From: Lachnospiraceae bacterium | GTDB lineage: Bacteria; Bacillota; Clostridia; Lachnospirales; Lachnospiraceae | DNA: 64,000 nt | Assembly: GCA_022769625.1 (NCBI GenBank) | Contig: JALEJP010000055.1 | Span: forward strand, 4,701-68,700 | Direction: 5' to 3' | Shown here: piece by piece, positions 24,112 to 40,694 of the stretch | How the letters are laid out: every line of letters starts with the position of its first letter | How positions within the stretch are numbered: position 1 is the first letter of the stretch | Notes under the pieces: generated by a model | Seen by the model: the letters and a program-made list of their open reading frames with translations, nothing else | The model's database searches: none | What the model was told of the DNA's origin: nothing | Translations under genes and position numbers: made by a program

Positions 24112-24987
24112 TCAGTCTTCTGGTATCATACCATATTTTATCTTGATCCGCTCCAGCTTCTCAATCATTGGCCTCCCGGCAAACCACAAAAAAAGAACGG
24201 TAGCCGATGCATGAACCAGATCAACCGGAAGTCCCGACATATAGATAGCCAGAAGATTTTTCCAGTTGATGGCATAGGACATCATAACAAGAGAAGCCGG
24301 ATTCATAATTCCCCCATAGATAAACACAGTCGCCAGAAACCCAAAGACGCACAGAGAAATCCTTCCGGCCTTAAGCCATCCTTTCTGGAACAGAATGCCC
24401 GCCAGAAAACCGATGATTCCCATGGCAAACATCTGCCAGGGTGTCCATGGACCCTGCCCGAAAAGCATATTGGAAGCAAGCATACTGACTGCTCCCACCA
24501 GAAATCCGGATTCTGCGCCAAAGCATACCGCAGCAATGATCACAACGGCTGCTACCGGTTTAAAACTTGGCACCATAAAAAATGCCGCCCTTCCCGCCAC
24601 TGCAATGGCAGCCAGAACCGCGATGACTAAAAGCTCTCTTGCCTGGGGCTTTCGTCCTTCAAAGATCATAAAAAAAGGACAGACCGAATAAAGGGCGATT
24701 GCCATACTGATTACCAGATATTTTCTGTCTTTAAAAAGTGTAATTCCAATCAGGATCGTGACGGGAATCAGAAAAAGTATAAGAAAAACAGCTGCCCGTG
24801 TGCGTGCCGGAAGTCTTCCTTTCCTTTTTGGAACAGCCATCACCTCCGGATACTCCATCCACGATTCTTTCTCCTGAACTGCCGTCTGCGGCTCATCCTT
24901 CCAGAAATCCGGATCCACCGGAAGTCCCTCCCCTTTTCCGTCAAAAAACGCATCCAGAAAAAGCTCCAGATTATCCTTTTGCAGCAT
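24112..24987 (-). CDS. ECF transporter S (substrate-capture) component with a ~65-aa cytoplasmic N-terminal extension; corrinoid specificity inferred
   Basis: Six hydrophobic helices and a GQGPWTPWQMF motif. It is the last gene of the riboswitch-controlled operon and overlaps ecfA by 17 nt. GGGAGG lies 8 nt before the ATG at 24987. Confidence 0.75.
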   Translation of the reverse strand: MLQKDNLELFLDAFFDGKGEGLPVDPDFWKDEPQTAVQEKESWMEYPEVMAVPKRKGRLPARTRAAVFLILFLIPVTILIGITLFKDRKYLVISMAIALYSVCPFFMIFEGRKPQARELLVIAVLAAIAVAGRAAFFMVPSFKPVAAVVIIAAVCFGAESGFLVGAVSMLASNMLFGQGPWTPWQMFAMGIIGFLAGILFQKGWLKAGRISLCVFGFLATVFIYGGIMNPASLVMMSYAINWKNLLAIYMSGLPVDLVHASATVLFLWFAGRPMIEKLERIKIKYGMIPED

Positions 24988-26719
24988 CCCCATCACCTCC
25001 CGGAACTTTGCTGTTCGTTAATTCCTCAATCACATCATCCACAGTCACCGCATTGGGATAATATCTGCGTGCCATCCGATTGGCAGCTGTGGTGTAAAAA
25101 CTGTTCCCGGCAAAGAAATCTCCGGAAGCCTTGCAGGTAACGACATTCCCCTGAAAAAAAAGCCCGGTCCGGTCTGCATACTGAGCGCAGAATTCTACAT
25201 CGTGAGAAATCATCAGGACGGTGATCCCCCTCCTGGTCAGTGTCTTTAATATCTCACCCAGCTCTTTTTTAAAATGGTTGTCCATGCCCTTGGTCGGCTC
25301 ATCCATCAGAAGAATTCTTGGCCGAAGAAGTAATATTTTTGCCAGTGCCAGACGCTGCTGTTCCCCGCCGCTTAAATCATAAGGGTGACGGTCCATCAGA
25401 TCTTCCAGCCTGGTAAGTGCCGCAATTCCTGCCACGGCATCTCTTTTTTTCATGTCAATTTGATAGGCGCGGCTCTTTTTCTCCCTCTTTCCATCGATCA
25501 TTTCATACAGATCATCACGGACTGTTTTTTTCACAAAAAGACTTTGGGGATTCTGTGGGAGAACACCCAGGAATCCATGGTACAGTTCATCGTCGGAATA
25601 TTTGTTGATTTCTCTTCCTTCCAGCCATATCTTTCCCCGGTAAGGATAGCGAATCCGGGCAATCAGACTCATAGTGGTACTTTTTCCGGTCCCATTTCCA
25701 CCTACCAGAGCAAAAATCTCACCTTTTTCCACATCCAGAGACAGACCTTTCACCACATCCGGGGATTCCTTTTCATACCGGAACCAGACATCTCTCATCC
25801 GGATTGCCGGTACTCTTTTTTCTTCCGGCTTTCTTTTTGCCCTTGTTTTCTGGCTTTCTTCTTTTTCTGTCTTTGGAGACAGATTTCTCTGTTTCATCTC
25901 CTCCATAAGCCATCTTCTTCCCCTGCTGACCGTAAGAGGGCATTCCAGACTGCTTCCTGCTCCTGCATAAATCTGCATGGGCGTTGGCATGGAAAGAAAC
26001 ATGTCATGATTCCTGTTTTTGAGTTCCTTTCCGATTTCCTGCGGTGTTCCACGTGCAATGATCTCTCCCTGATCCATCACATATACCCGATCTGCCCATG
26101 GAAGCACATCCTCCAGACGATGTTCCGTCAGAATTACGGTAGTTCCCACATCCCGGTTGATCTTTCGCACGGTTTCCAGAAAATCAGAGGCGGCAATGGG
26201 ATCCAGCTGAGAAGTGGGCTCATCCAGAATCAGAAGATCGGGATGCATCGCCATGACTGATGCCAGATTCAGTAACTGCTTCTGCCCTCCTGATAATTCA
26301 CTGACCTTTTTCATAAACCATTCATGAATTCCAAAATAAGAAGCCATTTCTGCCACTCTCAGACGTATGGTAGGCGTATCATATCCCAGACTTTCCAGTC
26401 CAAATGCCAGCTCGTGCCATACCTTATCTGTCACAATCTGATTGTCCGCATTCTGCAGCACATACCCGATCCCGGCACTCTGTGTCCGTTTGTCAAGCGA
26501 ATCCAGTTCTCTTCCCATATAGCGGATACAGCCCGTTTTATCACCGTTGGGCGCAAGCGAAGATTTCAGCTGTCTAAGCAGTGTACTTTTCCCACATCCG
26601 CTTTTACCGCAAAGAACAACAAAGCTTGCATCCTCCACTTCCAGATCAATGTTTTTCAGTATCCAGTTTTCACTGCCGGGATAGCGAAAACAGAATTTTT
26701 CCATTTCAATACAGTTCAT
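24971..26719 (-). CDS. fused ECF transporter ATPase (EcfA-EcfA', two ABC domains)
   Basis: 582 aa with two Walker A sites (GKSGCGKST, GGNGTGKST) and two signatures (LSGGQKQ, LSGGEQQ). Confidence 0.88.
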   Translation of the reverse strand: MNCIEMEKFCFRYPGSENWILKNIDLEVEDASFVVLCGKSGCGKSTLLRQLKSSLAPNGDKTGCIRYMGRELDSLDKRTQSAGIGYVLQNADNQIVTDKVWHELAFGLESLGYDTPTIRLRVAEMASYFGIHEWFMKKVSELSGGQKQLLNLASVMAMHPDLLILDEPTSQLDPIAASDFLETVRKINRDVGTTVILTEHRLEDVLPWADRVYVMDQGEIIARGTPQEIGKELKNRNHDMFLSMPTPMQIYAGAGSSLECPLTVSRGRRWLMEEMKQRNLSPKTEKEESQKTRAKRKPEEKRVPAIRMRDVWFRYEKESPDVVKGLSLDVEKGEIFALVGGNGTGKSTTMSLIARIRYPYRGKIWLEGREINKYSDDELYHGFLGVLPQNPQSLFVKKTVRDDLYEMIDGKREKKSRAYQIDMKKRDAVAGIAALTRLEDLMDRHPYDLSGGEQQRLALAKILLLRPRILLMDEPTKGMDNHFKKELGEILKTLTRRGITVLMISHDVEFCAQYADRTGLFFQGNVVTCKASGDFFAGNSFYTTAANRMARRYYPNAVTVDDVIEELTNSKVPGGDGDAAKG

Positions 26720-27686
26720 CTGCCTCTCCTTCCTTCTGCCGCACAGGATCCGTCATATACCATGGTATCTTTCTTTCCCGGTTGGCCCTGGCTTTCAGTC
26801 TGTAAAAAACGGCATCCTCCCAGACTCCAAACAAAAAGGGAAAAAAACAGATGACGCCCCATGCAAGGTAAACAAGTATACTGTGCGCAGTCAGCGGAAA
26901 ACCGCCGATGATGATCTTCGGATCATACTGTGCAAAAACATCTCCGGAAAAGAATCCTCCAAAACAAACTTCGGTAAGCGCCAGAAGAAGGGCGGAAAGG
27001 ATTCCGTCTCTTCGGTCAAAATGAAAAACGGAAAAAGCAGTCCTTCCTTTCAGACCGTATCCTCTGGCTGTCATGGAATCTGAGGTATCTATGGCATTTT
27101 CCAGTGCCCAGGTAACAAGTATGGAAAATAGTGTAATTCCATATTTTATTTTACGCAGAAAATGTGCATTACTCATATCCCGTCCCACCGCCTTCTGCCC
27201 ATTTCGTATCACCTTCAGCTGCTCTCCAAAGCGCGGCACAAAGCGAAATACCATGGAGAGCACCAGCGAAAGTGATGGGATGATCCGTCCAAACAGATAG
27301 ACAAATTTGTCCGTGGTCATCACCTCGTTGTAGCAGGAAAACCACAGAACTGCAATAAAAAGCATGGAAGACAGAACCACGCCATAGACAATTGCTTCCA
27401 GTGTAACCGGTCCTGTTTTGAGATAGAACAGCGTAGTCACTCCATAATGATTGAAGGCAGGATTAATCAGCGCAACCAGGATCATGGCCGGGAGCGTAAC
27501 CAGGATATTAAATTTTATCACCTTTCTCCAGCCTTTCAGCCGTATGGCATAGGCTGCTGCTCCCAGAAACGAAATGGCAAGCAGCACCGGATGACTGACG
27601 AACATCGTAAACAGCAGGACAATAAGAAAATACATCAGGTTCACCACAGGATGACATCCGGCAAAAGCATCCGTCTGTTTATTCAT
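26706..27686 (-). CDS. ecfT: energy-coupling factor transporter transmembrane protein EcfT
   Basis: CbiQ/EcfT-like polytopic protein with an ARG-type coupling motif (MTARGYGLKGR). ATG at 27686 overlaps the stop of the upstream gene. Confidence 0.82.
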   Translation of the reverse strand: MNKQTDAFAGCHPVVNLMYFLIVLLFTMFVSHPVLLAISFLGAAAYAIRLKGWRKVIKFNILVTLPAMILVALINPAFNHYGVTTLFYLKTGPVTLEAIVYGVVLSSMLFIAVLWFSCYNEVMTTDKFVYLFGRIIPSLSLVLSMVFRFVPRFGEQLKVIRNGQKAVGRDMSNAHFLRKIKYGITLFSILVTWALENAIDTSDSMTARGYGLKGRTAFSVFHFDRRDGILSALLLALTEVCFGGFFSGDVFAQYDPKIIIGGFPLTAHSILVYLAWGVICFFPFLFGVWEDAVFYRLKARANRERKIPWYMTDPVRQKEGEADELY

Positions 27687-28791
27687 AATACTGATCTCCC
27701 ACATCACGTCCCAGATCACAGGTATAGCGCCACTCGATCACATCGCCGTCACTTACTTCATATTTGGAACATCCATAATTCGGAAACCATCCATTCACCG
27801 AATACATCCAGCCGGAAAGCGAACCACAGTCAAACTCATACAGCTGATTGATTCCTTCCACATAATAAGAGCTGTATGCCGGTGTATAGCTTGCCTCCAT
27901 GTGAATATCCGCCTCACGGCATGCCCGGTAGAGTACATCATAGACCGTTTCTCCCGGTGTATAAGAAATTTCTGAGGCATACAGGATCCAGCCATCTGAT
28001 GGTACAAATTCTTCCTTGGATTTTTTGAGATCCTCCATATTATCCAGAATAGTGGAACATTCGATGGAGATGGTACAGGTATGTGTATCTGCGTTTTCCT
28101 GAGAAGAATCCTCTTCCTGTAACGCTGCCTCTTCTGTCCCGGCATCTGTACTTTCCCTGGCCCCGGTGTTTCCCCCCACCAGATAATAGGTATCTCCCAT
28201 CTCGGTAACCTGGAACGTCAGTTTTGTGGTATCTGTCTCAGTTTTTTCCATGGAAACATCACACATCTTTTCCGGTACGCCATCAACCAGTTTGCATAAA
28301 ATGACCAGATCTGCGTCCCACTTCTGCGGAAGCTCCAGTGTCAGCTTTGCGGGTGCAGCCAGATTTTCCTTTGCCAGAGTGACTCCAAGCCCAACCGAAG
28401 CACCATTTGCCGCCTGCTTCACATTCTCCACGTTATCGTCGGTAAAAATAACCTTCAGATTCTGTTCCACCGGATTCTGTATTTTTCTGCCCTCGTAACT
28501 CCAGTAATAGGCAATGTTCCTTGCTTCATCCTGTGAATAAAACTGATACGTCGCATCGGTTCCGGCAATTGCATTCATCTGCTCCCGGGTCACAATACCG
28601 CTTTCCGGCAGCTCCATTCTACCATCTGTAAACAGTTCATCCACGGAGAGCGTTTCCCCGGCCTCTGTTTTTTCTTCTGTCTGCCCGGACTTCTCCAGCT
28701 GTGTGATCTCACTGCTGTTTGTGGTACAGCCTGCAGTAAGCAGCAGGATGGTAAGCACCATCATCCCTATTCGGCTATAATTTCTTTTCAT
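27679..28791 (-). CDS. lipoprotein with a C-terminal DUF4430 (transcobalamin-like beta) domain
   Basis: Lipobox MKRNYSRIGMMVLTILLLTAG|C. The C-terminus GETVYDVLYRA...YVEGINQLYEF..SGWMYSVNGW...DGDVIEWRYT is canonical DUF4430. RBS AGGAGGAG lies before the ATG at 28791. Confidence 0.85.
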   Translation of the reverse strand: MKRNYSRIGMMVLTILLLTAGCTTNSSEITQLEKSGQTEEKTEAGETLSVDELFTDGRMELPESGIVTREQMNAIAGTDATYQFYSQDEARNIAYYWSYEGRKIQNPVEQNLKVIFTDDNVENVKQAANGASVGLGVTLAKENLAAPAKLTLELPQKWDADLVILCKLVDGVPEKMCDVSMEKTETDTTKLTFQVTEMGDTYYLVGGNTGARESTDAGTEEAALQEEDSSQENADTHTCTISIECSTILDNMEDLKKSKEEFVPSDGWILYASEISYTPGETVYDVLYRACREADIHMEASYTPAYSSYYVEGINQLYEFDCGSLSGWMYSVNGWFPNYGCSKYEVSDGDVIEWRYTCDLGRDVGDQYYE

Positions 28792-31700
28792 TTCGTCTCC
28801 TCCTGCCAACAGCAAAAACGATACAGGCTCCCAGTGCAGCTCCCAGAATAAATACAAGCAGGACAGTAATATTTTCACGCTTCCAGATACCGTTCAGACC
28901 GGTGCCGACTGCATGCATACCGGTACGCTCTGAATCATTCTCAGATTCAGGAGACTCCTTTTGTGTATCGTCGGAAGCATTGTCCGGCGTATAAGTCTTT
29001 CCCTCAAAGCTCCATCCTTTTGCTTCTTTTTTGCTGCTTTCTGTTTTTGCACTGCTTGTTTTCTGTGTCCCGTTCTCCGTTTTGCTCAGTGTTTTTCCTA
29101 CGGAACTGCCTTTTGGCTGTGTGTTTCCACCTGTCTGTGACTCTTTCGGATCTGATATTCCGGTTCCGCTCCCGTCTCCCTTTTCTCCTTTTTGAGCTGT
29201 CAGGTCAGACATGTCATAAAGCGAGGTCTTGCCATCACAAAACCGTTGATAAGCAACCAGCGCATAATAGCCCTGTTCCGTTGCCATCCCATTTACCACG
29301 CCGCCTTCACCGCCTCCATTTGTCGCCGCTCCGGCTTTGACATGCATAAACCCGCTGCCGTCGATATGATAAGAAATCAGGTTTTCCACGGTCCATCTTC
29401 CATTTTTAATGAAACGTGCGTCCTTCCGGGGATCAATTCCAAGTGCACAGAGTGCGGTAATGACCTGTGCATTGGATTCCAGCGTTTCCGCTCCCATCGT
29501 GCCGAAACCGCCTGTCTTCAGCTGCATCTTTGACAGGCGGTTTACGCCACGGTCAATTGCCGCCGTTACCTTCCCGTAACTCTCCTTATTGTAATAAGGT
29601 GCCAGCGCCTGCAGTGTCATGGCTGTAATATCGGTATCCGGTTCGTCTCCCTGCAAAGACCATCCCCCTCCGGCAATCTCTCCTTCCAGCAGATAATCAA
29701 TCAGTTTTTGTTCAGTTGTCTGTTCAGAAACACCGGAAACCTTTGGAATCGTATAGTCCGGATTGCAGTTCAGCGCAATCAGAGCCCAGATGGGACCATT
29801 AAATCCCTGTTCCGTGATTTTTGCAAAATCTGCAAGATTTTCCAGCAGATTGTAACCTGCTATGTTTCTTGCATCCTTCCCGATGGCTGTCATAACCAGG
29901 ATCTGTTTGGAATACTCGGTATATTTCACACTGTTGGTCAGTTTGCCATCCTTTTCCTCCAGGTAATTTGCAAGATGATTGTAATAGGTCTGAAAATATT
30001 TGGATTTCAGGGATTTCCCCCCTCTTGCAAGACCAAGCACAAACCATTCACTTCCTACGGTGGGGTCTTTGTCAATGGAAAGCATATATTCTGATGTCTC
30101 TTTCCTGACCTGGTCAACCGATTTTTTCAGTTTATTGGCTTTGTCTGTCACCGTCACTTTGCAGAATGCTGTTATGGATGCGTCTGACTTCAGTGAAACG
30201 GTAACCTTTACACTTCCCGGTGAAATGCCTTTCAGCATCCCGTCACCCGTGACCTTCACGATGGACGGATCGGAACTTTTTATGACTACTGTTCTGTCTG
30301 TCGTCGCATTGAATGGTGTATAATCCACCTCCAGGGAAATCGTGTTTCCAATCCCTACATATTCTTCCGGGGGGACTGAAATTTTTGTAACACGGATCGG
30401 ATTGCTGACGATCAGCAGCGCTCCGGTGTGACTGGTCTTGAACGTAATGCCGTTATCGGTAATCTGGCTTTCCAGCTCCTTTAAAACCACAGAGCTTCCC
30501 TCTGCTGTCAGGGTATTGACGCAGGGATTGTTCAGATTCTGTGCCTCCGAGAGATCTGCTTTTAATTCCAGATCCCTGTCTGGCGTATAAGTGGTTCCAC
30601 TTCGGATATCCTGATAGGAAATGATCTTATTGAAAGCAATGGATGCAAAGGAAGAATACTTTTCTGTCACTGCTTTCTTCCAGGAACTGTTTTCCGTTCC
30701 ATTTTTTACAGTCAGGCACACATACCACGCGGCAGTAACACTTAAGCCACCTGAGGTGTGGATCTGATCTCCGATCCACTGACGGATGGATTTGATGGAG
30801 TCGGTTGTTTTTTCTGACAGCCGGTTCAGCTGTTCTGCTTCCATAGCATCACAGGCATTGGAAATCACGATGAAGCTTTGGATCTGTTTGGAATTTAAGT
30901 CAAACGGCTTTGTCTGATCCACCGAAGCCACAGTCTCGTTGACACAGGAAACCGTCCAGTCTGCAATCTCTTCCATACGTTCTGCTGCTTCCTCGTTCAG
31001 ATAAGCCTTCTGATCTGCAGCGAGACTGGAATACCTTTTCCAGAGATCCACTGCATCCGCCACATTGCCAACCGTCACACGGTCTGCAAAATCCGTTATC
31101 TTTTTCTGCACTGTATCTGCTTCTGTTTTCAACTGCCGGATTTTCTCTTCCAGGTTTACCAGCTTCCGGATCAGATCGGCATCCAGCTTACTTTGCTGTT
31201 CTGTGTCCAGATCTTCGTAAGCACTGCGCACTTCCCGAACCGCGGTTTCATCCGAAAGCGAAACGCGTTCCGGTGACGGCAGATCTGTCAGCCTGTCCCG
31301 AACCCTCTCCACCTGCTTCTGCTTTTCAATCACCACATCTGCTTCCTGTTTCAGCCTGCGAAGCTCTTCCACAGACCCCGCTGACATCTCCTTTTGTACT
31401 TCATCGGAAAGTGACAGGTATTCATCCCACACCTTTTGAATCTGCTGCGCTGTTTCTTCTGTCACAGCACCTGCAGAAGAAAGCGCAGTGATTTTTGTCT
31501 CCATGGACTTTGCCAGCTCCTTCGGTGTGCCCACCATAATTTTACATTCCGCTGACACTCCACTTTGAGTCCGAACCGTAATGACCGCTTCCCCGTTTTT
31601 CAAAGCAGTGACTTTCCCCGAGGCATTCACAGAGGCAACCGAAGCATCGCTGCTTGCGTATGTAACACTCAGTTTTTCCGTGGCATTTTCGGGCTCATAT

Positions 31701-32833
31701 TTTTCCACATGGATTGAAACACTGTCTCCCATTTTCAACCAGGCAGTCGTCTGGTTCAGAATGATTTTCGTGATCTTCCGATCCTTTACCGTCACATGAC
31801 AGACCGCCGTTTTCTGATTCTGCGTTTTCACGGTGATATCAGCCGTTCCAACTCCCAAAGCCGTCACCAGTCCATCCGAATCCACCGATACAACCCCACC
31901 ATCGGAGCTGACCCATTCCAGAGAATACTGGTTCACATTTTCCGGACTCAGGACCGCATGAAGCTTCAGGGTATCACCTGGACTTAAATCTGCCTGCGTT
32001 TTCTGTAAAGTGATCTGATTGGGAAAAACCGGTTCTTCCTCCGGCAGCTGTGCCAGGGCATAATCCAGCTCACTTTGTGATGCATCCAGCTTCTGCAGTA
32101 CCGTTATGGCGTTGTAATAAGCTGCCTCACATCCCGGCACACAAAACCAGACTGATTTCTTCTGATTGATCTGTGCGATTTTCCTGGTAAGTGCCGTCTT
32201 ATCTCCCACCGGATAATACACCTTTGTTTTGTCACTGTAGCTGCATCCGGTAAGGTCTTCTCCGTATCCCCACACTGTAAACTGCAGTCGGAACACATCA
32301 CCGTCTTTCGGACTTTTCCCGTCCATGCCTACACCTGGATACTCATTACCTTTATCATTTCCCACAGAATACATCCATCCGGACATTCTCGAATAAGAAA
32401 ATTCTCCAAGCCATGCCAGATTTCCCGCATACTCATTTTTCGCACTGTTATCCGGAGGTTCCACGTTTTTAATACCTATTTTTTTCGCTCCGATCGTTTT
32501 GATGCAGGAAGGAATCGAAATCGTCCCTGCGTCTGCGCCATTGATTCCGGAAAGATAAAAACTGGCTCCTTTTGTGTCGTAGCTGTATCCATTTTCCTGC
32601 AAAACCCTCCTGCAGATCGTCTCATACGTATCCCCGCTCTGAAAGGTTGTCACATAGGGTTGGATCAGATAGCCCTGGCCGATGGAAAAACGTTCCACTG
32701 CCACGGTAACAGTTCCAGCAGAGACAGTTTCTGCCTCTGCTGAAATCATACAGCCCGGAAATGTTGAAAAAACAAGTACTGCTGACAATAGAAATGATAT
32801 CAAACAGTTCACTCTCTTTTTTCTTCTATCCAT
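28775..32833 (-). CDS. 1352-aa cell-surface protein: signal peptide, DUF4430, Big_2 modules, helical repeats, alpha/alpha-toroid (prenyltransferase/transcobalamin-alpha-like) domain, S/T-rich linker, C-terminal TM anchor
   Basis: N-terminal block FSIGQGYLIQPY...SGWMYSVGND...DGDVFRLQFTVWG. Big_2 blocks (LKLHAVLSPENVN..). Toroid motifs NGPIWALIALNCNPDY, TDITAMTLQALAPYYN and GGFGTMGAETLESNAQVITALCALG. Tail VLLVFILGAALGACIVFAVGRRRRNEKKL with no LPXTG. Confidence 0.8.
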   Translation of the reverse strand: MDRRKKRVNCLISFLLSAVLVFSTFPGCMISAEAETVSAGTVTVAVERFSIGQGYLIQPYVTTFQSGDTYETICRRVLQENGYSYDTKGASFYLSGINGADAGTISIPSCIKTIGAKKIGIKNVEPPDNSAKNEYAGNLAWLGEFSYSRMSGWMYSVGNDKGNEYPGVGMDGKSPKDGDVFRLQFTVWGYGEDLTGCSYSDKTKVYYPVGDKTALTRKIAQINQKKSVWFCVPGCEAAYYNAITVLQKLDASQSELDYALAQLPEEEPVFPNQITLQKTQADLSPGDTLKLHAVLSPENVNQYSLEWVSSDGGVVSVDSDGLVTALGVGTADITVKTQNQKTAVCHVTVKDRKITKIILNQTTAWLKMGDSVSIHVEKYEPENATEKLSVTYASSDASVASVNASGKVTALKNGEAVITVRTQSGVSAECKIMVGTPKELAKSMETKITALSSAGAVTEETAQQIQKVWDEYLSLSDEVQKEMSAGSVEELRRLKQEADVVIEKQKQVERVRDRLTDLPSPERVSLSDETAVREVRSAYEDLDTEQQSKLDADLIRKLVNLEEKIRQLKTEADTVQKKITDFADRVTVGNVADAVDLWKRYSSLAADQKAYLNEEAAERMEEIADWTVSCVNETVASVDQTKPFDLNSKQIQSFIVISNACDAMEAEQLNRLSEKTTDSIKSIRQWIGDQIHTSGGLSVTAAWYVCLTVKNGTENSSWKKAVTEKYSSFASIAFNKIISYQDIRSGTTYTPDRDLELKADLSEAQNLNNPCVNTLTAEGSSVVLKELESQITDNGITFKTSHTGALLIVSNPIRVTKISVPPEEYVGIGNTISLEVDYTPFNATTDRTVVIKSSDPSIVKVTGDGMLKGISPGSVKVTVSLKSDASITAFCKVTVTDKANKLKKSVDQVRKETSEYMLSIDKDPTVGSEWFVLGLARGGKSLKSKYFQTYYNHLANYLEEKDGKLTNSVKYTEYSKQILVMTAIGKDARNIAGYNLLENLADFAKITEQGFNGPIWALIALNCNPDYTIPKVSGVSEQTTEQKLIDYLLEGEIAGGGWSLQGDEPDTDITAMTLQALAPYYNKESYGKVTAAIDRGVNRLSKMQLKTGGFGTMGAETLESNAQVITALCALGIDPRKDARFIKNGRWTVENLISYHIDGSGFMHVKAGAATNGGGEGGVVNGMATEQGYYALVAYQRFCDGKTSLYDMSDLTAQKGEKGDGSGTGISDPKESQTGGNTQPKGSSVGKTLSKTENGTQKTSSAKTESSKKEAKGWSFEGKTYTPDNASDDTQKESPESENDSERTGMHAVGTGLNGIWKRENITVLLVFILGAALGACIVFAVGRRRRNEKKL

Positions 32834-32857
32834 AACTCCATACCAGACTCTGAATGT

Positions 32858-35800
32858 TTACTTTTTGATCTTCACAGCTTTTGCGGAAGAATAAGCGCTG
32901 TATACCTTCTTGCCGTTTACCTTCCGGTAAGCTCTTACTTTATAATAACAGGTACTGCCTTTTTTCCGTTTGCTGTCTGTATATTTAACCGTTTTTCCGG
33001 AACGGATGGTTTTGATTGCTTTATAAGTTCCGTTCTTTTTGGATGCACGGTAAACAATGTAACCGCTTGCACCTGCAACCTTCTTCCAGGTGATAAGTGC
33101 TTTCTTTCCTTTTTTATTTTTTACGGAAATAACAGCTTTTGCGGGTACGGTTTTTGCTGTCACACTATTGGAAAGCTGACTGTATACTGTTTCACCCCAT
33201 GCTGTACTCACCGCCTGTACCGCATAGTAATACCGGGTTCCGGTTACTGCATTCCTGTCACGGAAATTCAGCTCTTTTGTCTCGCCAAGTTTCTGCCAGT
33301 TTCCACCTGATACTTTACGGTAAATCGAATAGGAAGCTGCACCGATACAGGATTTCCAGGAAAGCTCCACACAATTATAGGAAACTGCTTTGGCAGCTGC
33401 CGAAGGTACCAGTTCCCGGAATTCTGTTTTTAACTTTTCCAGCGCCGCTTTCTCTGCTGCTTCTTTTTCCGCTTCCTGATTATCATCCGCGGATCCACCC
33501 ACATCGGTCAGGTCATACAGGGCGTTCTCTTTTTCAACAAAACGGCGGTATGCTTCAAACGCATAGGTCGTCTGCTGTGTTCCCATTGCATTTCCTTTGG
33601 TTTCCACAGATGGATCCCAGTAGAAACCTTCCTCTGCCTTGTAGCTCCACAGATTTGTAATCATATTTTTCTGACCGATGGTAAATCCATTTTTACCATC
33701 AGCCGCATCCATACCTGCCACAGACAGAGCAGTCAGAATCTGTGCCGTGGTACAGCTGTTCTCATTGTAGGATTTATTCGCCGCAAAGCCGGCCTCTAAA
33801 GACATCTGTTCCTGAAGCCATGTCAGTGCTTTCTCAAAGGCTTCCTGAACTTCCGGATGCTTCTCGTTATTATAAGGAGCCAGTGCCTGCAGGATCATAC
33901 CGGTCATATCAACATCGGTTGCATCGGTTAAGGTAAATCCTCCGCTGGCATCCTGGAAAAGAAGGAGCATCTCAATCAGGCTGTCCCGATTCCATTTTGC
34001 TTTTGCCGGAGTTTTGTAATTTTTGCTGTCAAGTGCAATCAAAGTCCAGGATATCTGATTGGAGGTCAGCTCATCCAGATCCTTCCAGTTGTACAGCTTT
34101 TCAATCAGGTTCATTCCACGGAAATTTTCCGGGTTTTCCCCCATGACTCCCAGTGTCAGTACAACACGGACATAGTCTGTAGGCTGGTTCAGTCCATTCT
34201 TCAATGAAGTTTCCACACTGTCCAGATACGCAGACTGATCTGCTTCCTGAATCGTTCCACCGGCCCTGAGGATCGTAAAGATATTCCACTCATCCCCGTA
34301 TTTCGTCACACTCTGTCGTTCCAGGTAATCCAGTCCGTGCGTAATACCAGCTTTTACCGTAGGCATCGGATCATAGGTTTCTGCTGTTTCGCTTTTTACC
34401 GTAACAGTGAATGTGATCGGTTTGCATCCGCCTGATGTATCGTATGGCGTGCCGGTCACGGTAACAGTTCCTGCTTTTTTGGCAACAATAGTCTTACCAT
34501 TCATGCTCACGATTCCATTTTCACTGTAACTCCAGTCAAAATCAGAATTTGTTGCATTGGAAGGTGTTGTCTCCAGACTCAGAGCAAGGGTATCGCCCAC
34601 ATTCATCTCATAAGAAGTCTGCTTCAGGGACGCATCCGTTAACGGAACCTGATATACAAAGGTAACCATTACTTCCTGGGTAAGGGAAGGGTTGTCCTGA
34701 CTGGTAACCTTAAATTTTGCCACCCCGGCTCTTTTTGGAACAATACCGGAATTATGCTGTGATGTATAGAAAGCCACATCCGGTGTCAGTGCTTCCCAAA
34801 TCAGTTCCTTATTGGTCGCATTGGAAGGTGTATAATCAATCTTCAGATTATCGCTGTAAAGCTGCAGACCGTAATAGTAGCCGGTCATAAAATCCGTCTC
34901 ACCGGTGATCGTAAAGGTTTCCGGCGTTGTGATTTGAAACCCACTTAAAGGCTGGTAATTACATTTTGCAAGGAATTGCTGTTTAACGCTCCAGTTATCC
35001 TTCATGAAAACAGACATGGCAGCCTGTCCCCCGGTTTTGATGGACAGGTTATTTCCAACCCACCTGAAATTATAGGTGGTATCATTCGTATCATAATGAA
35101 GGGCCTGCGCCGGTATAACCTGCCACTCATCTTCTGCTGTTTTCCGGCCATAGGTTGTCACTTCCACGCCGCTTGTTGTTCCTTCTGTTACATATGGCTG
35201 ATCCAGGGATACTTCCTGATCACCCACGCAGGTTTTCAGTTCGGTGATACCGCTGGAAACACATGTCACCTGAAAAGATTTGCTCCATCCTCCAGAATCA
35301 GCAATAATATTCAAAGTTCTTGTATCCCAGGGATTCCATTTACCGGTTTCCCGATTTATGAAGCTCCAGTACTGCAGATCATCTCCTCCTGCAATGGAAG
35401 ATACGAAATCACTGCCGCCACTCCATGTAGTGGTACCTTCCGATCTTCCAACCACAAATTTACCTTCATCCAGACAGGTCAGTGTAATCGTATTATCTTC
35501 ACCGAGAATCTGCGGATCCCTTCCGTCTTCATATTCAAAATATACATAGGGTCCCTGATAAGCAGTGACTTCTACCTCAAAAGTGGATGTCCTGGATCCG
35601 ACTTTTACGATGACGCTGGTCTTTCCTTCCTTTTTTCCTTTTACGGAAGCAAGATATTCATTTCCTTCCATCGGTATAACCTCTGCCACCGTTTCATCTT
35701 CCACGCTCCACTCCCAGTCCAGATTTTCAATACCGGATGGAACCACTTCAGCCATCAGATTGAGTTCCCCGGAAATGGCTTCCACCTGATTGGTGGAACC

Positions 35801-36730
35801 CATATTAGTGATGTAGAGACTGTCAGCATCACGAACGGTCACCTCAACACTGTCTTTTACTTCCGGATTCTCTGCTGTCACGGTAATGGTTGCTGTTCCG
35901 GCACCAATTCCTTTGATCACGCCATCCTTAACCGTTGCGACCGTTTCATCTGTTGATTCCCAGGTCAGAACATCTGTGCTTCCAAGAGGATCCAGTGTCG
36001 GTATCACGGTCACTTTCTGACCGCCGTAAATCTCCATTTTTTCTTCCGGCAACGTGATGTCCACTGCTCCGTCCGTGGCCGTCTCCATCTTTTCTTTTGC
36101 AGCGGCTACTGTCTCAGGAGTAGCATCCGTCGTATTCAGGAGCATCGCAACCGCCTCATCATAGGCAGCTCTGCGATTGCCGCCAAGTGCATTGGCATCA
36201 TATTGGGAGAGAGTCTGGATCAGCGCATCCTTGCTGACCTTTATATTTCCAACGGCTCCCCATCCTCCACCTTCTGAGGTTATTCCCGCTTTTTCCAGAT
36301 CACTTCCCGGGATATAAATAATACGCAAAACCGTTACCCGGCTTGCCCAGAAAGACGCAGAGTCGGTATAGCACTCACCGTCTGCCGATATCACCCATTT
36401 CGATCCTTCTCCGAGATCACCGTTATCGAGCCATCCGTCTTCCCGGCTGTCATCTTTAAATCCAGTAATCTCATCGTTGCTCATTTTAACCTGATCACTT
36501 CCCAGAAGTGACGTGATAAAAGGCGTACCATAACTGCCGCTCCAGCTCTCTGTCATCGTTGGCGGAACCAGAATCGTCCCATTTCCTTCTGCATCATATT
36601 TTTCAACGGTATAATACCTTGGTGCTGCTGCCTGCACCTGCACATCCATCACCGTAAATCCGGAGATGATCATGCACAGAGTAAGAACAATGCTCACTGC
36701 TCTTTTTAAAAACTTATTTCTCCTGTTCAT
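32858..36730 (-). CDS. 1290-aa secreted surface protein: Big_2 modules, beta-rich region, alpha/alpha-toroid domain, two very basic Fn3 modules
   Basis: Signal peptide MNRRNKFLKRAVSIVLTLCMIISGF... Several Big_2 blocks. Toroid motifs QISWTLIALDSKNYK, VDMTGMILQALAPYNN and EAGFAANKSYNENSCTTAQILTALSVAG. C-terminal Fn3-like repeats (SYSIYRKVSGG.., GYIVYRASKKNG..). ATG at 36730 lies 7 nt after GAGGAGG. Confidence 0.8.
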   Translation of the reverse strand: MNRRNKFLKRAVSIVLTLCMIISGFTVMDVQVQAAAPRYYTVEKYDAEGNGTILVPPTMTESWSGSYGTPFITSLLGSDQVKMSNDEITGFKDDSREDGWLDNGDLGEGSKWVISADGECYTDSASFWASRVTVLRIIYIPGSDLEKAGITSEGGGWGAVGNIKVSKDALIQTLSQYDANALGGNRRAAYDEAVAMLLNTTDATPETVAAAKEKMETATDGAVDITLPEEKMEIYGGQKVTVIPTLDPLGSTDVLTWESTDETVATVKDGVIKGIGAGTATITVTAENPEVKDSVEVTVRDADSLYITNMGSTNQVEAISGELNLMAEVVPSGIENLDWEWSVEDETVAEVIPMEGNEYLASVKGKKEGKTSVIVKVGSRTSTFEVEVTAYQGPYVYFEYEDGRDPQILGEDNTITLTCLDEGKFVVGRSEGTTTWSGGSDFVSSIAGGDDLQYWSFINRETGKWNPWDTRTLNIIADSGGWSKSFQVTCVSSGITELKTCVGDQEVSLDQPYVTEGTTSGVEVTTYGRKTAEDEWQVIPAQALHYDTNDTTYNFRWVGNNLSIKTGGQAAMSVFMKDNWSVKQQFLAKCNYQPLSGFQITTPETFTITGETDFMTGYYYGLQLYSDNLKIDYTPSNATNKELIWEALTPDVAFYTSQHNSGIVPKRAGVAKFKVTSQDNPSLTQEVMVTFVYQVPLTDASLKQTSYEMNVGDTLALSLETTPSNATNSDFDWSYSENGIVSMNGKTIVAKKAGTVTVTGTPYDTSGGCKPITFTVTVKSETAETYDPMPTVKAGITHGLDYLERQSVTKYGDEWNIFTILRAGGTIQEADQSAYLDSVETSLKNGLNQPTDYVRVVLTLGVMGENPENFRGMNLIEKLYNWKDLDELTSNQISWTLIALDSKNYKTPAKAKWNRDSLIEMLLLFQDASGGFTLTDATDVDMTGMILQALAPYNNEKHPEVQEAFEKALTWLQEQMSLEAGFAANKSYNENSCTTAQILTALSVAGMDAADGKNGFTIGQKNMITNLWSYKAEEGFYWDPSVETKGNAMGTQQTTYAFEAYRRFVEKENALYDLTDVGGSADDNQEAEKEAAEKAALEKLKTEFRELVPSAAAKAVSYNCVELSWKSCIGAASYSIYRKVSGGNWQKLGETKELNFRDRNAVTGTRYYYAVQAVSTAWGETVYSQLSNSVTAKTVPAKAVISVKNKKGKKALITWKKVAGASGYIVYRASKKNGTYKAIKTIRSGKTVKYTDSKRKKGSTCYYKVRAYRKVNGKKVYSAYSSAKAVKIKK

Positions 36731-36832: not shown

Positions 36833-37693
36833 TTATGATTTATCTGCAAATTCCATATCGAAACCAAACTCCCGGCAGTATGCTTCCACCCTTCCACCTC
36901 TTCTGCATCTGATTTTTGTGGATCGGTTGATGATCCATTCCCCGATTTCATCCGGTTCATGCAGAATTTCAAGCACCTGCAGTCGATTGCATCCGTGAAA
37001 TACCCACTTCCCGATTCGTTTTACACTTTCCGGGATTTTTACCGATTTCAGCATCGTGCATTTGAAAAATGCTGCTTCCTCCAGTTCCACAAGGCGTTCA
37101 GGTAAATGAAGTTCTTCCAGGGCCGTGTAGTAAAAGGCTTCCTGGCCAATCTTTTTCACCGATTTCGGTATATGAATTTGAGTCAGTGATTTACATCGAT
37201 AAAACGCTCTGCGTTCAATCCTTTCCAGATTGGTTGGAAGTACAATTTCCCTAAGCTGTGTGCAGCAGTCAAAAACACAGGATCCAAGTTCCGGCAGCAA
37301 CGCATCCGGATCCACAAAAACCGTCTGAAGCTTTCTGCACTCTTTAAACGCAGCGCTCTCCAGAAGTCTGATCTCTCTTGGGATACGGACGCTCTGCAGC
37401 GCACAGCTGCGTGCAAATGCCGCTTCTCTTATGGCTGTCACAGACTCCGGCAGCAAAAGTTCTCCTTCTATGCCGCAATTTTTAAAAGCTTCACGGCCGA
37501 TGATCCGGCAGGTTTTCGAAAATCTTACCTGTCTGAGTTTTGTCATATTTTCAAACGCTTTATCACCAATAAAAAAATACGGATCCGGTATGACAAACTC
37601 CTCCTGATTACGGCTCCCTACCTGCTTTTTTGTGATGGTTCTTACGGAAAGTTGTAAATCATGCCATTTCTTTTCATCCAGTTTGTATCGCAT
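36833..37693 (-). CDS. BspA-type leucine-rich repeat (LRR_5) protein without a signal peptide; first gene after the riboswitches
   Basis: Repeats of the type IG..AF..C..L..V.IP.SV..I. The N-terminus MRYKLDEKKWHDLQLSVRT is hydrophilic. RBS AAAGGAG lies 6 nt before the ATG at 37693; the track start 37744 lies inside the riboswitch terminator. Confidence 0.75.
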   Translation of the reverse strand: MRYKLDEKKWHDLQLSVRTITKKQVGSRNQEEFVIPDPYFFIGDKAFENMTKLRQVRFSKTCRIIGREAFKNCGIEGELLLPESVTAIREAAFARSCALQSVRIPREIRLLESAAFKECRKLQTVFVDPDALLPELGSCVFDCCTQLREIVLPTNLERIERRAFYRCKSLTQIHIPKSVKKIGQEAFYYTALEELHLPERLVELEEAAFFKCTMLKSVKIPESVKRIGKWVFHGCNRLQVLEILHEPDEIGEWIINRSTKIRCRRGGRVEAYCREFGFDMEFADKS

Positions 37694-37733: not shown

Positions 37734-37940
37734 AAAAAAAGCACATTTCCCTCACCCGGGAAACATTACTTCCACACCCGATATGGCAGGTCTCCTGACT
37801 TAGCTTCTTCCTCCGAAGCGCCTTCTCGAATCTTTCTTTCAATGGCATTTGCTTCTTCGTCGGCAATACAGTAGTGGTGACTGTCCCGGATTCCAACCGG
37901 GTTCCCTTTTTGCTCCACACAGATTGTGCTTCACCATATC
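37734..37940 (-). promoter_or_regulatory. cobalamin riboswitch, gene-proximal copy, with terminator
   Basis: Minus strand reads GGTGAAGCAC...AAAAGGGAACCCGGTTGGAATCCGGGACAGTCACCACTACTGTA. The B12 box AGTCAGGAGACCTGCC is the complement of 37785-37800. It is followed by GUUUCCC gggtga GGGAAAU + U7 (37734-37764). Confidence 0.88.
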
Positions 37941-37986
37941 GTGATTTTCTATTGTTAATTTACCCTGACTTTTATTTTTGGGTAAC

Positions 37987-38192
37987 AAAAAAGTACATTT
38001 TCCTCACCCGGAAAACATGACCTTGAATCAATCATGGCAGGTCTCCTGACTCAGCTTCTTCCTCCAAAGCGCCTTCCCGGCAATATCTGCCAGTGGCCTT
38101 CTGCTTTTTCGTCTGCATTACAGTAGTGGTGACTGTTCCGGTTTCTGACCGGATTCCCTTTTTACTCCACACAGTATGTGCTTCACCATGAC
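37987..38192 (-). promoter_or_regulatory. cobalamin riboswitch, promoter-proximal copy, with terminator
   Basis: Minus strand reads GGTGAAGCAC...AAAAGGGAATCCGGTCAGAAACCGGAACAGTCACCACTACTGTA. The B12 box AGTCAGGAGACCTGCC is the complement of 38036-38051. It is followed by CAUGUUUUCC gggtga GGAAAAUG + U6 (37987-38019). Confidence 0.88.
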
Positions 38193-38212
38193 GATTAATT
38201 TATATTTTTTTC

Positions 38213-38241
38213 ATTGTATTTCTTTTTGCCTTCCTTGTCAA
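38213..38241 (-). promoter_or_regulatory. promoter of the riboswitch-controlled operon (TTGACA-17-TACAAT)
   Basis: On the minus strand, TTGACA is the complement of 38236-38241 and TACAAT the complement of 38213-38218, spaced 17 nt. It lies about 20 nt upstream of the first aptamer. Confidence 0.75.
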
Positions 38242-38686: not shown

Positions 38687-38721
38687 AAATGGGGTGTCAC
38701 ACAAATGTGACACCCCATTTT
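38687..38721. terminator. bidirectional intrinsic terminator between convergent genes
   Basis: AAAT GGGGTGTCACA caaa TGTGACACCCC ATTTTT, a perfect 11-bp stem (38691-38716) with A/T tracts on both sides. Confidence 0.9.
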
Positions 38722-38750: not shown

Positions 38751-40694
38751 TTACAGACTTTTCATTTTAATCGTGCCTGCAGCACCACTGTTTCGGAAAA
38801 TACTCCGGTATGCTTCCATGTAATTTGCCTGCACGCTGAAAGCTGCGGTAGATTTGATTCCCTTAAATGCTTTGCTTCCAACCTTGCTCTTTGTCAGCTC
38901 CGTACTTCGGAAAATCAGTGTCTTCAGACTGCTGTCACCATAAAAGGCATATTTTCCGATGGTATTCAGCTTTTTAGAAACGGTGTTAAACTTGTATGCT
39001 GACGTACAGCCGCGGAATGCTCCCTTCTTAATGGTGGTCAGCTCCGGAGAAGAAATGTAAATTCTCCGCACGGAAGATACGTCGCGGAACGACCTCACTC
39101 CAATCATCTCGGCAGAAGGAAGGGTGATCCGGTATGACGTCCCGCCAACGGTTGTCAGACTGGTACATCCATAAAAGGCTTCTTCGTAGATCATCCGGAC
39201 TTTTTTACAGCCGCTTGCTTTTACAAGAGAGGTACATCCTTTGAAAGCATATTTTCCAATCTCTGTCACGCTGTCCGGTATGGAAATGTTTGTTATTTTC
39301 TTGTTGCCTGTCAATGCTTTTTCTGCAATGGAAGAAACCTTATAGGTAATACCGTTGATTGCGACCTGGGAGGGAATCGTCACAGATGTAATCTCATCAT
39401 CCAGAACACCGGCATACGCCACTTCCTGGCTTCTTACCGTAACCGTATATTTTCCGCCTGTTTTGCTGTCAAACAGCGTTGTGCCTGCCGTTGGAGCCAC
39501 ATACTGAACCGGAAGCAGAGCCGTATTTCTGAGATATGGATATCCGTTGTTGACGGATGCCTCCACTGCCCAGATTTCCGTGAAATCAAATCCGCTGAAA
39601 TAAGATGCCGTCTTAATCTGCACATCATTCAAAGCGATCGCTGTCCCGGTGATATAAGTTCCATCGGAAAAGGCATAGACCGGGTTCATGCTGTAATAAT
39701 AACAGCCGGACAGGGCACAGGCTGATGTCTGACTGCTTCCTGCGGCAACGCCTGCACTTCCAACCATGCCCAGAGCTTCTGAATAGTACATCTGAATACC
39801 AATACATTTACTGATACGCAGTGTCCCCACCGCTGCTGTCACTCTGCCGACCAGATTTCCTCCTCTTGTCAGCACACCGGCATTGTAACAGTTTTCTATT
39901 TTCACGTTTCGCACCGATTTTCCATCCGGAATGTCAACCGCACCAATCAATCCTCCCATTTCTGTGCCCGATACTTCTCCCACATTATAACTGGATGTAA
40001 ACAGCACATCCGCTTGCTCTTCCTGGTCGTCTTCTGCTTCAAGCATACCGATCAGACCTCCGCTGTTTGCACCGCCGTTTATTTTTGCGCTGTTTGCAAT
40101 GCCTTCAAACTGTATATCGGTTCCTTTCACCAGTCCGGCCAGTGCGCCGGTGTTTCCGGTTCCTGAAACGTTTCCGGTTATGCTTACATTCTGAATCCGG
40201 ACGGATGCCTTTTTCCCGGTTCCAATGGTGTCGGCCAGTGCACCGGTATCCCCGCTATGGCTGATTTCCACATCAACAAGGGAAAGATTACAGATGGTTC
40301 CCTCTTCCAGCACCTGAATCAATGCTGTTTTCAGTCCTTTGATCTGATGATTTCCTCCATCCAGCGTTCCGCGAAAAACCGGAATGCTTCCCTGCCATTC
40401 CGCGGAAGCCAGATCAAGATCATTCATTAATATATATTTGCCATCCGGTTTTTCTGACAGTTTGGAAAGATCGGATACCTGATAGATCCCCTGATAGCCT
40501 TCCGGCACATTCGAATCCTGCTGCACTTCTGACTCTGCTTCACTTTCTTTCTCAGATTCTGTTCCCGGATTTAAAACCTCCTGCTGTACGATTCCGGAAC
40601 CTATACTTTCTGCTGCAAACCCAACCTGTCCGGCTGTCATAGAAACTGCCAGACCTGCCACCAGGCAGGCTGCCAGATATTTTCTGTTCTTCAT
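38751..40694 (-). CDS. secreted surface protein with GLUG-motif repeats and a C-terminal BspA-type LRR region
   Basis: Signal peptide MKNRKYLAACLVAGLAVSMTAGQVGFA. Repeated G(A/G)L(A/I)G blocks (TGALADTIG, TGALAGLV, SGGLIGML, MGGLIGAV). C-terminal LRR_5 repeats (IPDSVTEIGKYAFKGCTSL...). Confidence 0.75.
   Translation of the reverse strand: MKNRKYLAACLVAGLAVSMTAGQVGFAAESIGSGIVQQEVLNPGTESEKESEAESEVQQDSNVPEGYQGIYQVSDLSKLSEKPDGKYILMNDLDLASAEWQGSIPVFRGTLDGGNHQIKGLKTALIQVLEEGTICNLSLVDVEISHSGDTGALADTIGTGKKASVRIQNVSITGNVSGTGNTGALAGLVKGTDIQFEGIANSAKINGGANSGGLIGMLEAEDDQEEQADVLFTSSYNVGEVSGTEMGGLIGAVDIPDGKSVRNVKIENCYNAGVLTRGGNLVGRVTAAVGTLRISKCIGIQMYYSEALGMVGSAGVAAGSSQTSACALSGCYYYSMNPVYAFSDGTYITGTAIALNDVQIKTASYFSGFDFTEIWAVEASVNNGYPYLRNTALLPVQYVAPTAGTTLFDSKTGGKYTVTVRSQEVAYAGVLDDEITSVTIPSQVAINGITYKVSSIAEKALTGNKKITNISIPDSVTEIGKYAFKGCTSLVKASGCKKVRMIYEEAFYGCTSLTTVGGTSYRITLPSAEMIGVRSFRDVSSVRRIYISSPELTTIKKGAFRGCTSAYKFNTVSKKLNTIGKYAFYGDSSLKTLIFRSTELTKSKVGSKAFKGIKSTAAFSVQANYMEAYRSIFRNSGAAGTIKMKSL

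Follow-up and report, generated by a model that had tools for sequence, protein, structure and literature searches.

What do two giant secreted proteins of a Lachnospiraceae bacterium do, if each carries modules reminiscent of the vitamin B12 carriers of mammals? The question arises from a 64,000-nt stretch of contig JALEJP010000055.1 (assembly GCA_022769625.1, positions 4,701 to 68,700), which was analysed as a whole and is called the window hereafter. A reading of the letters alone, referred to here as the sequence-only reading, had proposed that these two proteins, which we call A and B, and the lipoprotein encoded downstream of them, C, carry alpha/alpha-toroids and small DUF4430 beta modules that may together rebuild the two-lobed cobalamin clamp of mammalian transcobalamin (TC). 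Our sequence analyses and structural models indicate, with a probability of roughly three in four, that the operon encoding them specifies a B12-repressed system with TC-like modules for the scavenging and import of corrinoids, i.e. cobamides or their precursors. The geometry of the clamp and of the relay towards the membrane appears less certain than the scavenging role. We assign a B12-related role because of the tandem cobalamin riboswitches that precede the genes, the CbrT-type S component of the encoded transporter and the conservation of the whole cassette, evidence that the sequence-only reading had not invoked.

Both giant proteins are encoded in a single string of genes on the minus strand of the window, running from position ~38241 down to 24112. 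This seven-gene operon extends on both sides beyond the segment 28775-36730, which covers A and B alone. All its features given below are on that strand. It opens with a promoter-like site, TTGACA-17-TACAAT (38213..38241), which matches the consensus at 11 of 12 positions and whose putative function is deduced from its location directly 5' of the first aptamer. Two full-length matches to the Rfam covariance model of the cobalamin riboswitch (RF00174) follow, both on the operon strand, 5' of the genes and above the gathering score of 31.5 bits. Aptamer 1 (38019..38204) scores 109.8 bits (E=1.3e-26) and aptamer 2 (37768..37953) 91.3 bits (E=2.5e-21). The expression platform of aptamer 2 (37735..37766) contains a hairpin of nine pairs followed by the U-tract GCTTTTTTTG (-15 kcal/mol), which makes a convincing predicted terminator (z=-3.0). 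The hairpin and U-tract located 3' of aptamer 1 (37986..38018) are of the same sequence design, but they resemble a terminator more weakly (z=-1.6 relative to shuffled sequences). Based on this anatomy, transcription would be halted by the two tandem riboswitch-terminator units when intracellular cobalamin is high, and the operon would be read through both terminators when B12 is low. The two units (37735-38241) are ~80% identical and stand in series 251 nt apart, and their terminator hairpins are alike too, which suggests a recent tandem duplication that created two successive termination checkpoints. Two to four copies of the riboswitch are also present in several related loci, four of them in the survey described below.

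The distal part of the operon codes for an energy-coupling factor (ECF) transporter. The T component (26706..27719) matches Pfam CbiQ (38.1 bits for a cut-off of 25) and EcfT in the PDB (5d3m_D, E=1.9e-8). Encoded together with it are fused A-A' ATPases with two ATP-binding cassette domains (24971..26719; ABC_tran in two stretches, E=3.5e-58; TIGR04520 ECF_ATPase_1, 336 bits for a cut-off of 315) and a small integral-membrane S component (24112..24996), with Pfam matches to ECF-ribofla_trS (E=3e-11) and ECF_trnsprt. The best and sole significant PDB match of the S component is 6fnp_A (E=8.5e-10 over 173 residues), which is ECF-CbrT, the vitamin B12 ECF transporter of Lactobacillus delbrueckii (Santos et al. 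2018, PMC5997447). Thus, by sequence, T and A-A' are typical ECF parts, and the transporter is a dedicated CbrT-type importer whose predicted substrate is a corrinoid. Like the L. delbrueckii transporter, it combines a T component and two ATPase domains with a homologous S component. However, CbrT shares its ECF module, one of the general group II type, and lacks extracellular helper proteins, while in the window the module is operon-encoded and dedicated, the ATPases are fused and the transporter comes with three to five binding modules outside the cell. The S component also differs by an N-terminal extension of ~115 aa ahead of its CbrT-like core, with extra hydrophobic segments. A further variation is found in ~15 related loci, in which the A-A' ATPase and the S component form one fused open reading frame (ORF) of 741 to 940 aa; such a fusion would tether the substrate-binding subunit to the motor.

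The cassette is widespread in Bacillota. Homologues of the toroid domain form at least 1373 protein clusters, and at least 562 genome matches were confirmed, from which we surveyed the 79 best loci found through the toroid. They belong to Lachnospiraceae, Blautia, Paenibacillus, Clostridium, Tissierellales, Oscillospiraceae and other groups; among the matches listed, the closest is a Lachnospiraceae metagenome-assembled genome whose toroid is 83% identical to that of the window. DUF4430 is found in 74 of the 79 loci, the ECF T and A components in 66 each and an S component of the type found in the window in 61. The gene order is nearly constant, with the toroid protein(s) followed by a DUF4430 protein, T, A-A' and S. 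The Rfam cobalamin riboswitch was detected in five of seven loci sampled. With an nhmmer profile seeded from these matches, at least 51 of the 79 loci proved to contain elements that resemble the riboswitch, nearly all of them upstream of the genes and on the operon strand. This count is a lower bound, as many loci are truncated upstream.

Among the surface proteins, the beta modules have the clearest relationship to TC. Protein B (28775..32833; 1352 aa) harbours at its N-terminus a DUF4430/SLBB module of a long subtype (residues 49-194; 32252..32689) that matches positions 2 to 104 of the 105 of a family hidden Markov model (HMM) built from the related loci (E=9.4e-25) and carries an insertion of ~40 aa. 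Long-type modules with this insertion represent 22 of the 162 DUF4430 modules collected and are mostly N-terminal. The Pfam DUF4430 model gives the B N-terminus 21.2 bits, under its cut-off of 23.8, and a single-sequence PDB search with this region returned nothing. Its relatives numbered three in a word-index search and 41 in an alignment query. We obtained an AlphaFold2 model of the region with a mean predicted local distance difference test score (pLDDT) of 86.7. The top 19 Foldseek neighbours of this model in the PDB are all TC, the TC beta domain, intrinsic factor, haptocorrin or 3u7z, a DUF4430 structure from R. gnavus, and the isolated TC beta domain 5no0 aligns with a TM-score of 0.64 on the target. 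The DUF4430-type block that the sequence-only reading had placed there is thus confirmed.

That reading had also suspected a weaker DUF4430-like domain at the N-terminus of A (32858..36730 from an ATG, 1290 aa, or up to 36745 from a GTG, 1295 aa). The corresponding region (residues 57-154; 36284..36577) has no Pfam match and reaches only E=0.03 with the family DUF4430 HMM. Nevertheless, a profile made from 16 homologues aligns with the DUF4430 profile in hhalign over 94 of 105 columns (96.6% probability, E=4.9e-10), and we regard it on this profile evidence as a real, divergent DUF4430/SLBB module. It is rare: 21 representative homologues were recovered among 1.84 billion proteins, and in these it is always N-terminal in giant proteins. 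Full-length Pfam and NCBIfam scans missed the N-terminal modules of both A and B, which required segment scans and family profiles.

Lipoprotein C (27679..28791; ~370 aa from M30, lipobox LTAGC) ends, as had been proposed, in a canonical DUF4430 domain (ORF residues 290-394; window 27697-28011; PF14478, 70.3 bits for a cut-off of 23.8, E=1.8e-19). The sole PDB matches of this domain in a single-sequence search were designed Kelch-repeat proteins, which we judged to be chance hits due to a short G-W/D-G-D stretch. The N-terminal two-thirds of C (28021-28791; ORF residues ~41-286), which link the lipid anchor to the DUF4430 module, have no Pfam match, yet 23 related loci encode lipoproteins in which they are conserved. 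A G-W motif links the three modules: it reads SGWMY in B and C and SKWVI in A, where the W is kept and the G is replaced by K. In B, SGWMYSVGND starts at residue 151 and DGDVFRLQFTVWG at residue 177, and in A GSKWVISADGE starts at residue 114; every motif quoted in the sequence-only reading, in A and B alike, was found where it had been placed. Aligned with human TC, the DUF4430 family profile matches residues 327-406 (hhalign, 78.5% probability, E=1.7e-5). By both profile comparison and structural modelling of the B module, therefore, the DUF4430 modules are predicted homologues of the TC beta domain, as had been claimed.

The beta modules of A and B are each part of a long chain. Protein B is composed of a signal peptide (residues 7-32), the DUF4430 module, a helical linker, two Big_2 domains, a helical region of ~220 aa, an unassigned region, another Big_2 domain and the toroid (residues 899-1214; 29192..30139), followed by a low-complexity linker of ~105 aa, a transmembrane anchor (residues 1320-1345; 28799..28876; Kyte-Doolittle peak of 2.92) and an RRRRNEKKL tail. 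The Big_2 match has an E-value of 1.9e-28. We disregarded an NCBIfam match of B to SCO2321_fam (29 bits for a cut-off of 300). Protein A consists of a signal peptide (residues 12-37), the divergent DUF4430 module, two Big_2 domains, ~300 unassigned residues, a further Big_2 domain, the toroid (residues 785-1085; 33491..34393) and two FN3-like basic domains that form its C-terminus; Pfam detects Big_2 in three stretches, and A has no membrane anchor. The stretches without family assignment correspond to positions 30344-31546 in B (the helical region of ~220 aa plus ~170 aa) and 34646-35563 in A (~300 aa), both on the minus strand. In A and B alike, the beta module and the toroid are ~700 residues apart in one chain. 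Since B is anchored at its C-terminus, its toroid is predicted to be membrane-proximal, ~105 residues from the anchor, and its beta module to be at the distal tip. The sequence-only reading had the spacers project the entire clamp beyond the cell wall. In B, it is the beta module that they would project, and this part of the proposal is not supported.

The two toroids are paralogous, as had been noted (BLASTP, 27% identity over 407 aa, E=3e-27), and that of A retains every invariant column of the family alignment. Their motifs occupy residues 1012, 1067 and 1108 of B and 897, 945 and 984 of A. From a 59-sequence alignment, AlphaFold2 predicted residues 899-1214 of B to be an all-helical toroid with high confidence (pLDDT 96.4, predicted TM-score 0.94), in agreement with the alpha/alpha-toroid that had been proposed C-terminal to the DUF4430 module. 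In a Foldseek search with this model, TC in its complex with CD320 ranked second of 682 hits (E=1.2e-4), and the best TM-score of all, 0.63, was obtained with TC chain 7qbe_C. Intrinsic factor ranked 18th, and prenyltransferases, squalene-hopene cyclase (SHC) and GH105 hydrolases were also among the hits. Short homologues of the toroid are often combined with FN3, SLH or dockerin domains or with a transmembrane segment.

Several lines of evidence weigh against corrinoid scavenging by a TC-like clamp, some against the ligand and others against the clamp. Regarding the ligand, our literature search found no report of B12 binding by Gram-positive surface proteins of this kind. About one-third of the related loci have no riboswitch in the DNA examined, including one with 10 kb of upstream sequence. 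In addition, according to the available text of a preprint (bioRxiv 10.1101/864751), the sole cassette of equal composition studied experimentally, lsa1836-1840 of L. sakei, is linked to heme and not to B12. By its description there, that cassette has the same five parts as the operon of the window: S, fused A-A', T and two secreted proteins, one beta-like and the other an alpha-like toroid protein. Its deletion is described as impairing heme accumulation and complementation as restoring it, and the authors proposed an alpha/beta heterodimer, formed in trans, that feeds heme to the ECF S component. The operon of the window might by analogy serve the uptake of heme or another non-corrin tetrapyrrole; the toroid and the beta module would then hold heme between them, for import by the ECF transporter. 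We consider this very unlikely. The L. sakei assignment is genetic, and in the portion of the preprint available the binding of heme by the alpha and beta proteins is docked in silico only, the S component is said by the authors to be devoid of cobalamin-binding residues and no B12 riboswitch is reported; the alpha and beta proteins of L. sakei are small, with one domain each. The window, in contrast, has two high-scoring cobalamin riboswitches, as do many of the related loci in at least one copy, and an S component whose closest solved relative is the B12-specific CbrT. The Lachnospiraceae-type and lactobacillar members of the family may differ in substrate.

Regarding the clamp, most points against it come from the toroid. 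In its Foldseek search, drimenyl-diphosphate synthase, a class II terpene synthase, comes first (E=9.6e-5), and the toroid family profile matches SHC (E=1e-11, over only ~70 residues) and drimenyl-diphosphate synthase (E=3e-6). TC has no match to this profile at E-values up to 1, and the hhalign comparison between the toroid family and the TC alpha domain is not significant (1.4% probability); the human TC sequence that we used was checked against PDB 7qbf_A, with 100% identity over 409 residues. The Pfam model of the TC alpha domain, PF01122 (Cobalamin_bind), does not match the toroids at E-values up to 10. The Pfam matches that do appear are weak and under their cut-offs (SQHop_cyclase_C, 20.8-21.9 bits for 26.1; Prenyltrans, 19.6 for 26.5), with E-values around 1e-4 for the two toroids (1e-4 and 7e-4, respectively, for that of A). 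Lastly, a clamp formed in cis by B would require its stalk to fold back, given the ~700 residues between its beta and alpha modules.

One could then imagine that B12 is handled by DUF4430 and the CbrT-like transporter only and that the toroids and stalks do something else, such as adhere to mucus or cells, bind host B12 carriers, or act as enzymes or bind isoprenoids in keeping with a terpene-cyclase-like ancestry. The sequence and structural matches just described speak for this alternative. The toroid family motif, D-x-D-[MILV]-T-[AG]-M, overlaps the DxDDTA motif of the cyclases; the isolated TC beta domain was crystallized with cyanocobalamin (PDB 5np4), so that a beta module can hold the ligand alone; and the operon comprises a leucine-rich-repeat (LRR) protein in a neighbourhood rich in adhesin-like LRR and Big_2 proteins. 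Nevertheless, we find it unlikely that there is no joint function. No partner accompanies DUF4430 and the ECF genes more constantly than the toroid: 74 of the 79 toroid loci carry DUF4430, and 49 of the 93 toroid ORFs combine the two modules in one chain, whichever comes first. This is hard to explain otherwise. The catalytic DxDD motif of class II terpene cyclases was found in none of the 59 aligned members, all of which have a hydrophobic residue in place of the second Asp of the pair. The toroid is also single and located behind a signal peptide in surface proteins, unlike the two-domain (beta-gamma) cyclases, which are cytoplasmic or membrane-associated.

Similar ambiguity affects the resemblance noted between the toroid motif and a TC alpha segment given as VDTAAMAGLAF. 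The segment was confirmed in the human TC sequence and the similarity is real, and the alignment, insignificant as it is, is colinear and pairs DTDITAMTLQAL with SVDTAAMAGLAF. However, the same toroid segment also aligns with the SHC motif PDVDDTAVVVWAL (DVDDTA), and therefore the TC-like motif appears to be a generic helix-cap motif of toroids. We dropped it as specific evidence. As for the structural neighbours, a terpene synthase ranks first, but TC is second and has the best TM-score, and by structure the terpene synthases or prenyltransferases and TC tie as neighbours of the toroid. The claim that the toroids are TC-alpha-like is thus upheld for the fold but not for the sequence, to which SHC is closer. 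On mixed evidence, the toroid appears to share the TC alpha fold, and it is neither a demonstrable Cobalamin_bind member nor, apparently, a cyclase.

If corrinoid scavenging does involve a clamp, its two halves might come from the same chain or from different ones. Both layouts that had been envisaged, beta and alpha modules in one protein and a toroid-only protein plus a beta lipoprotein, proved to be widespread among the related loci. The same-chain proteins are the 49 toroid ORFs with DUF4430 mentioned above, in which beta modules (b) and toroids (TOR) are arranged as b-TOR, TOR-b, TOR-b-TOR, b-TOR-b-TOR and in other orders. By contrast, 29 of 78 loci have only toroid proteins without beta modules, and in these the beta module is on a protein of its own. 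Of 71 T genes, 49 are directly preceded by a gene for a protein with a short-type DUF4430, and a toroid is also present in just one of these 49. From these architecture statistics, which were our sole guide to the cis or trans question, the lipoprotein-type beta module would therefore be the constant partner of the transporter, pairing in trans would be sufficient and the beta modules in cis would be additions. Eight loci of Paenibacillus, Lutispora, Tissierella and Clostridium encode single giant proteins in which as many as two or three toroids alternate with as many as four DUF4430 modules, e.g. b-b-b-TOR-b-TOR, and this arrangement suggests multivalent capture arrays.

We propose the following sequence of events for corrinoid scavenging. 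The distal beta modules of A and B would capture the corrinoid outside the wall, and a toroid and a beta module would then sandwich it as in TC. The beta module of this clamp would most plausibly be that of the membrane-proximal lipoprotein C, acting in trans; failing that, the protein's own beta module would fold back in cis. ATP-driven import of the ligand would follow its transfer to the S component. It is possible, but we advance it only tentatively, that A, B, the lipoprotein and the ECF transporter constitute in this manner a wall-spanning corrinoid relay, with distal beta modules on ~700-residue stalks serving as bait, a TC-like clamp closed in trans by the membrane-proximal toroid and the beta module of the lipoprotein, and delivery to the CbrT-like S component. 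Such a relay would be a Gram-positive counterpart of the Bacteroides BtuG, BtuH and BtuJ proteins. If it exists, it might strip B12 from host intrinsic factor, haptocorrin or competitors, and the toroid would be either a bacterial ancestor of the TC alpha domain of animals or an independent recruitment of the same fold to the same task.

The idea of B12 scavenging by such proteins is not new. Burroughs, Balaji, Iyer and Aravind (2007; Biol Direct 2:4, PMC1796856) defined a TC-like clade of SLBB domains, which in Gram-positive bacteria are fused N- or C-terminally to an alpha/alpha-toroid and also to Ig domains. They noted that such an operon encodes another SLBB protein, a paralogue of the first, and that CbiO/CbiQ genes are adjacent. 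They further remarked that these bacteria usually lack B12 synthesis, and predicted that the proteins scavenge B12 or its precursors. The operon of the window has every one of these domain and gene-neighbourhood features. Riboswitch control and a CbrT-type S component were not reported in that work, which was a prediction only, and in the window ~700 residues separate the alpha and beta modules of a chain, and the giant stalk proteins that bear them are a pair of paralogues. The scavenging proposal thus dates from 2007, and the window adds a clean example of it, with tandem riboswitches, a CbrT-like S component and the two paralogous stalk proteins.

With mammalian TC, intrinsic factor and haptocorrin (PF01122 plus PF14478), the system shares a two-module logic, an alpha6/alpha6 toroid and a small beta-grasp domain, and the beta modules are homologous. 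The mammalian carriers are single chains of ~400 aa in which the alpha domain precedes a short linker and the beta domain, while here the order is reversed or the modules are on separate chains, within wall-spanning proteins of ~1300 aa. For His173, which coordinates cobalt in TC, no counterpart was established. The Bacteroides BtuG/BtuH/BtuJ systems are alike in concept, as riboswitch-controlled loci with several surface B12 binders that feed a membrane transporter. Their folds are unrelated (a beta-propeller in BtuG, the BtuH domain, DUF4465 in BtuJ), and they operate with an outer membrane and a TonB-dependent transporter.

Competition for B12 and cobamides shapes gut communities, and extracellular capture is known in detail only for Bacteroides; a 2026 review describes it as entirely uncharacterized in Gram-positive Firmicutes. 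A widespread Bacillota cassette tied to B12 by its riboswitches, its CbrT-type S component and its TC-like beta modules therefore gives biochemists a well-defined system to work on. The cassette is also relevant to the bacterial origin proposed for the transcobalamins of animals (PMC1796856) and to whether the L. sakei cassette is specific for heme.

The first gene of the operon (36833..37693) codes for a BspA-type LRR protein of ~286 aa, counted from an ATG that follows a GGAGC ribosome-binding site (Pfam LRR_5, E=1.7e-51). It is devoid of a signal peptide. LRR-coding ORFs flank the cassette in three related loci as well. Just ahead of the riboswitch promoter, the minus strand also encodes a 647-aa secreted protein (38751-40694) composed of an M26-peptidase N-terminal-like region and BspA LRR_5 repeats, which is separated from the operon by a strong bidirectional terminator (38687-38720).

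Two other genes of the window, both on the minus strand, code for unusual or large proteins. The first (7590-12749) encodes a 1719-aa secreted GH89 alpha-N-acetylglucosaminidase (NAGLU) with F5/8 type C, Big_2 and LRR_5 domains. By its sequence, it looks like a mucin-glycan-degrading enzyme, which would fit a gut origin of this Lachnospiraceae bacterium. The second, an ORF of 881 aa (45590-48235), joins an amino-acid permease (residues 12-437) and an iron-containing alcohol dehydrogenase (residues 513-881) in one chain, an uncommon combination of a transporter with an enzyme.

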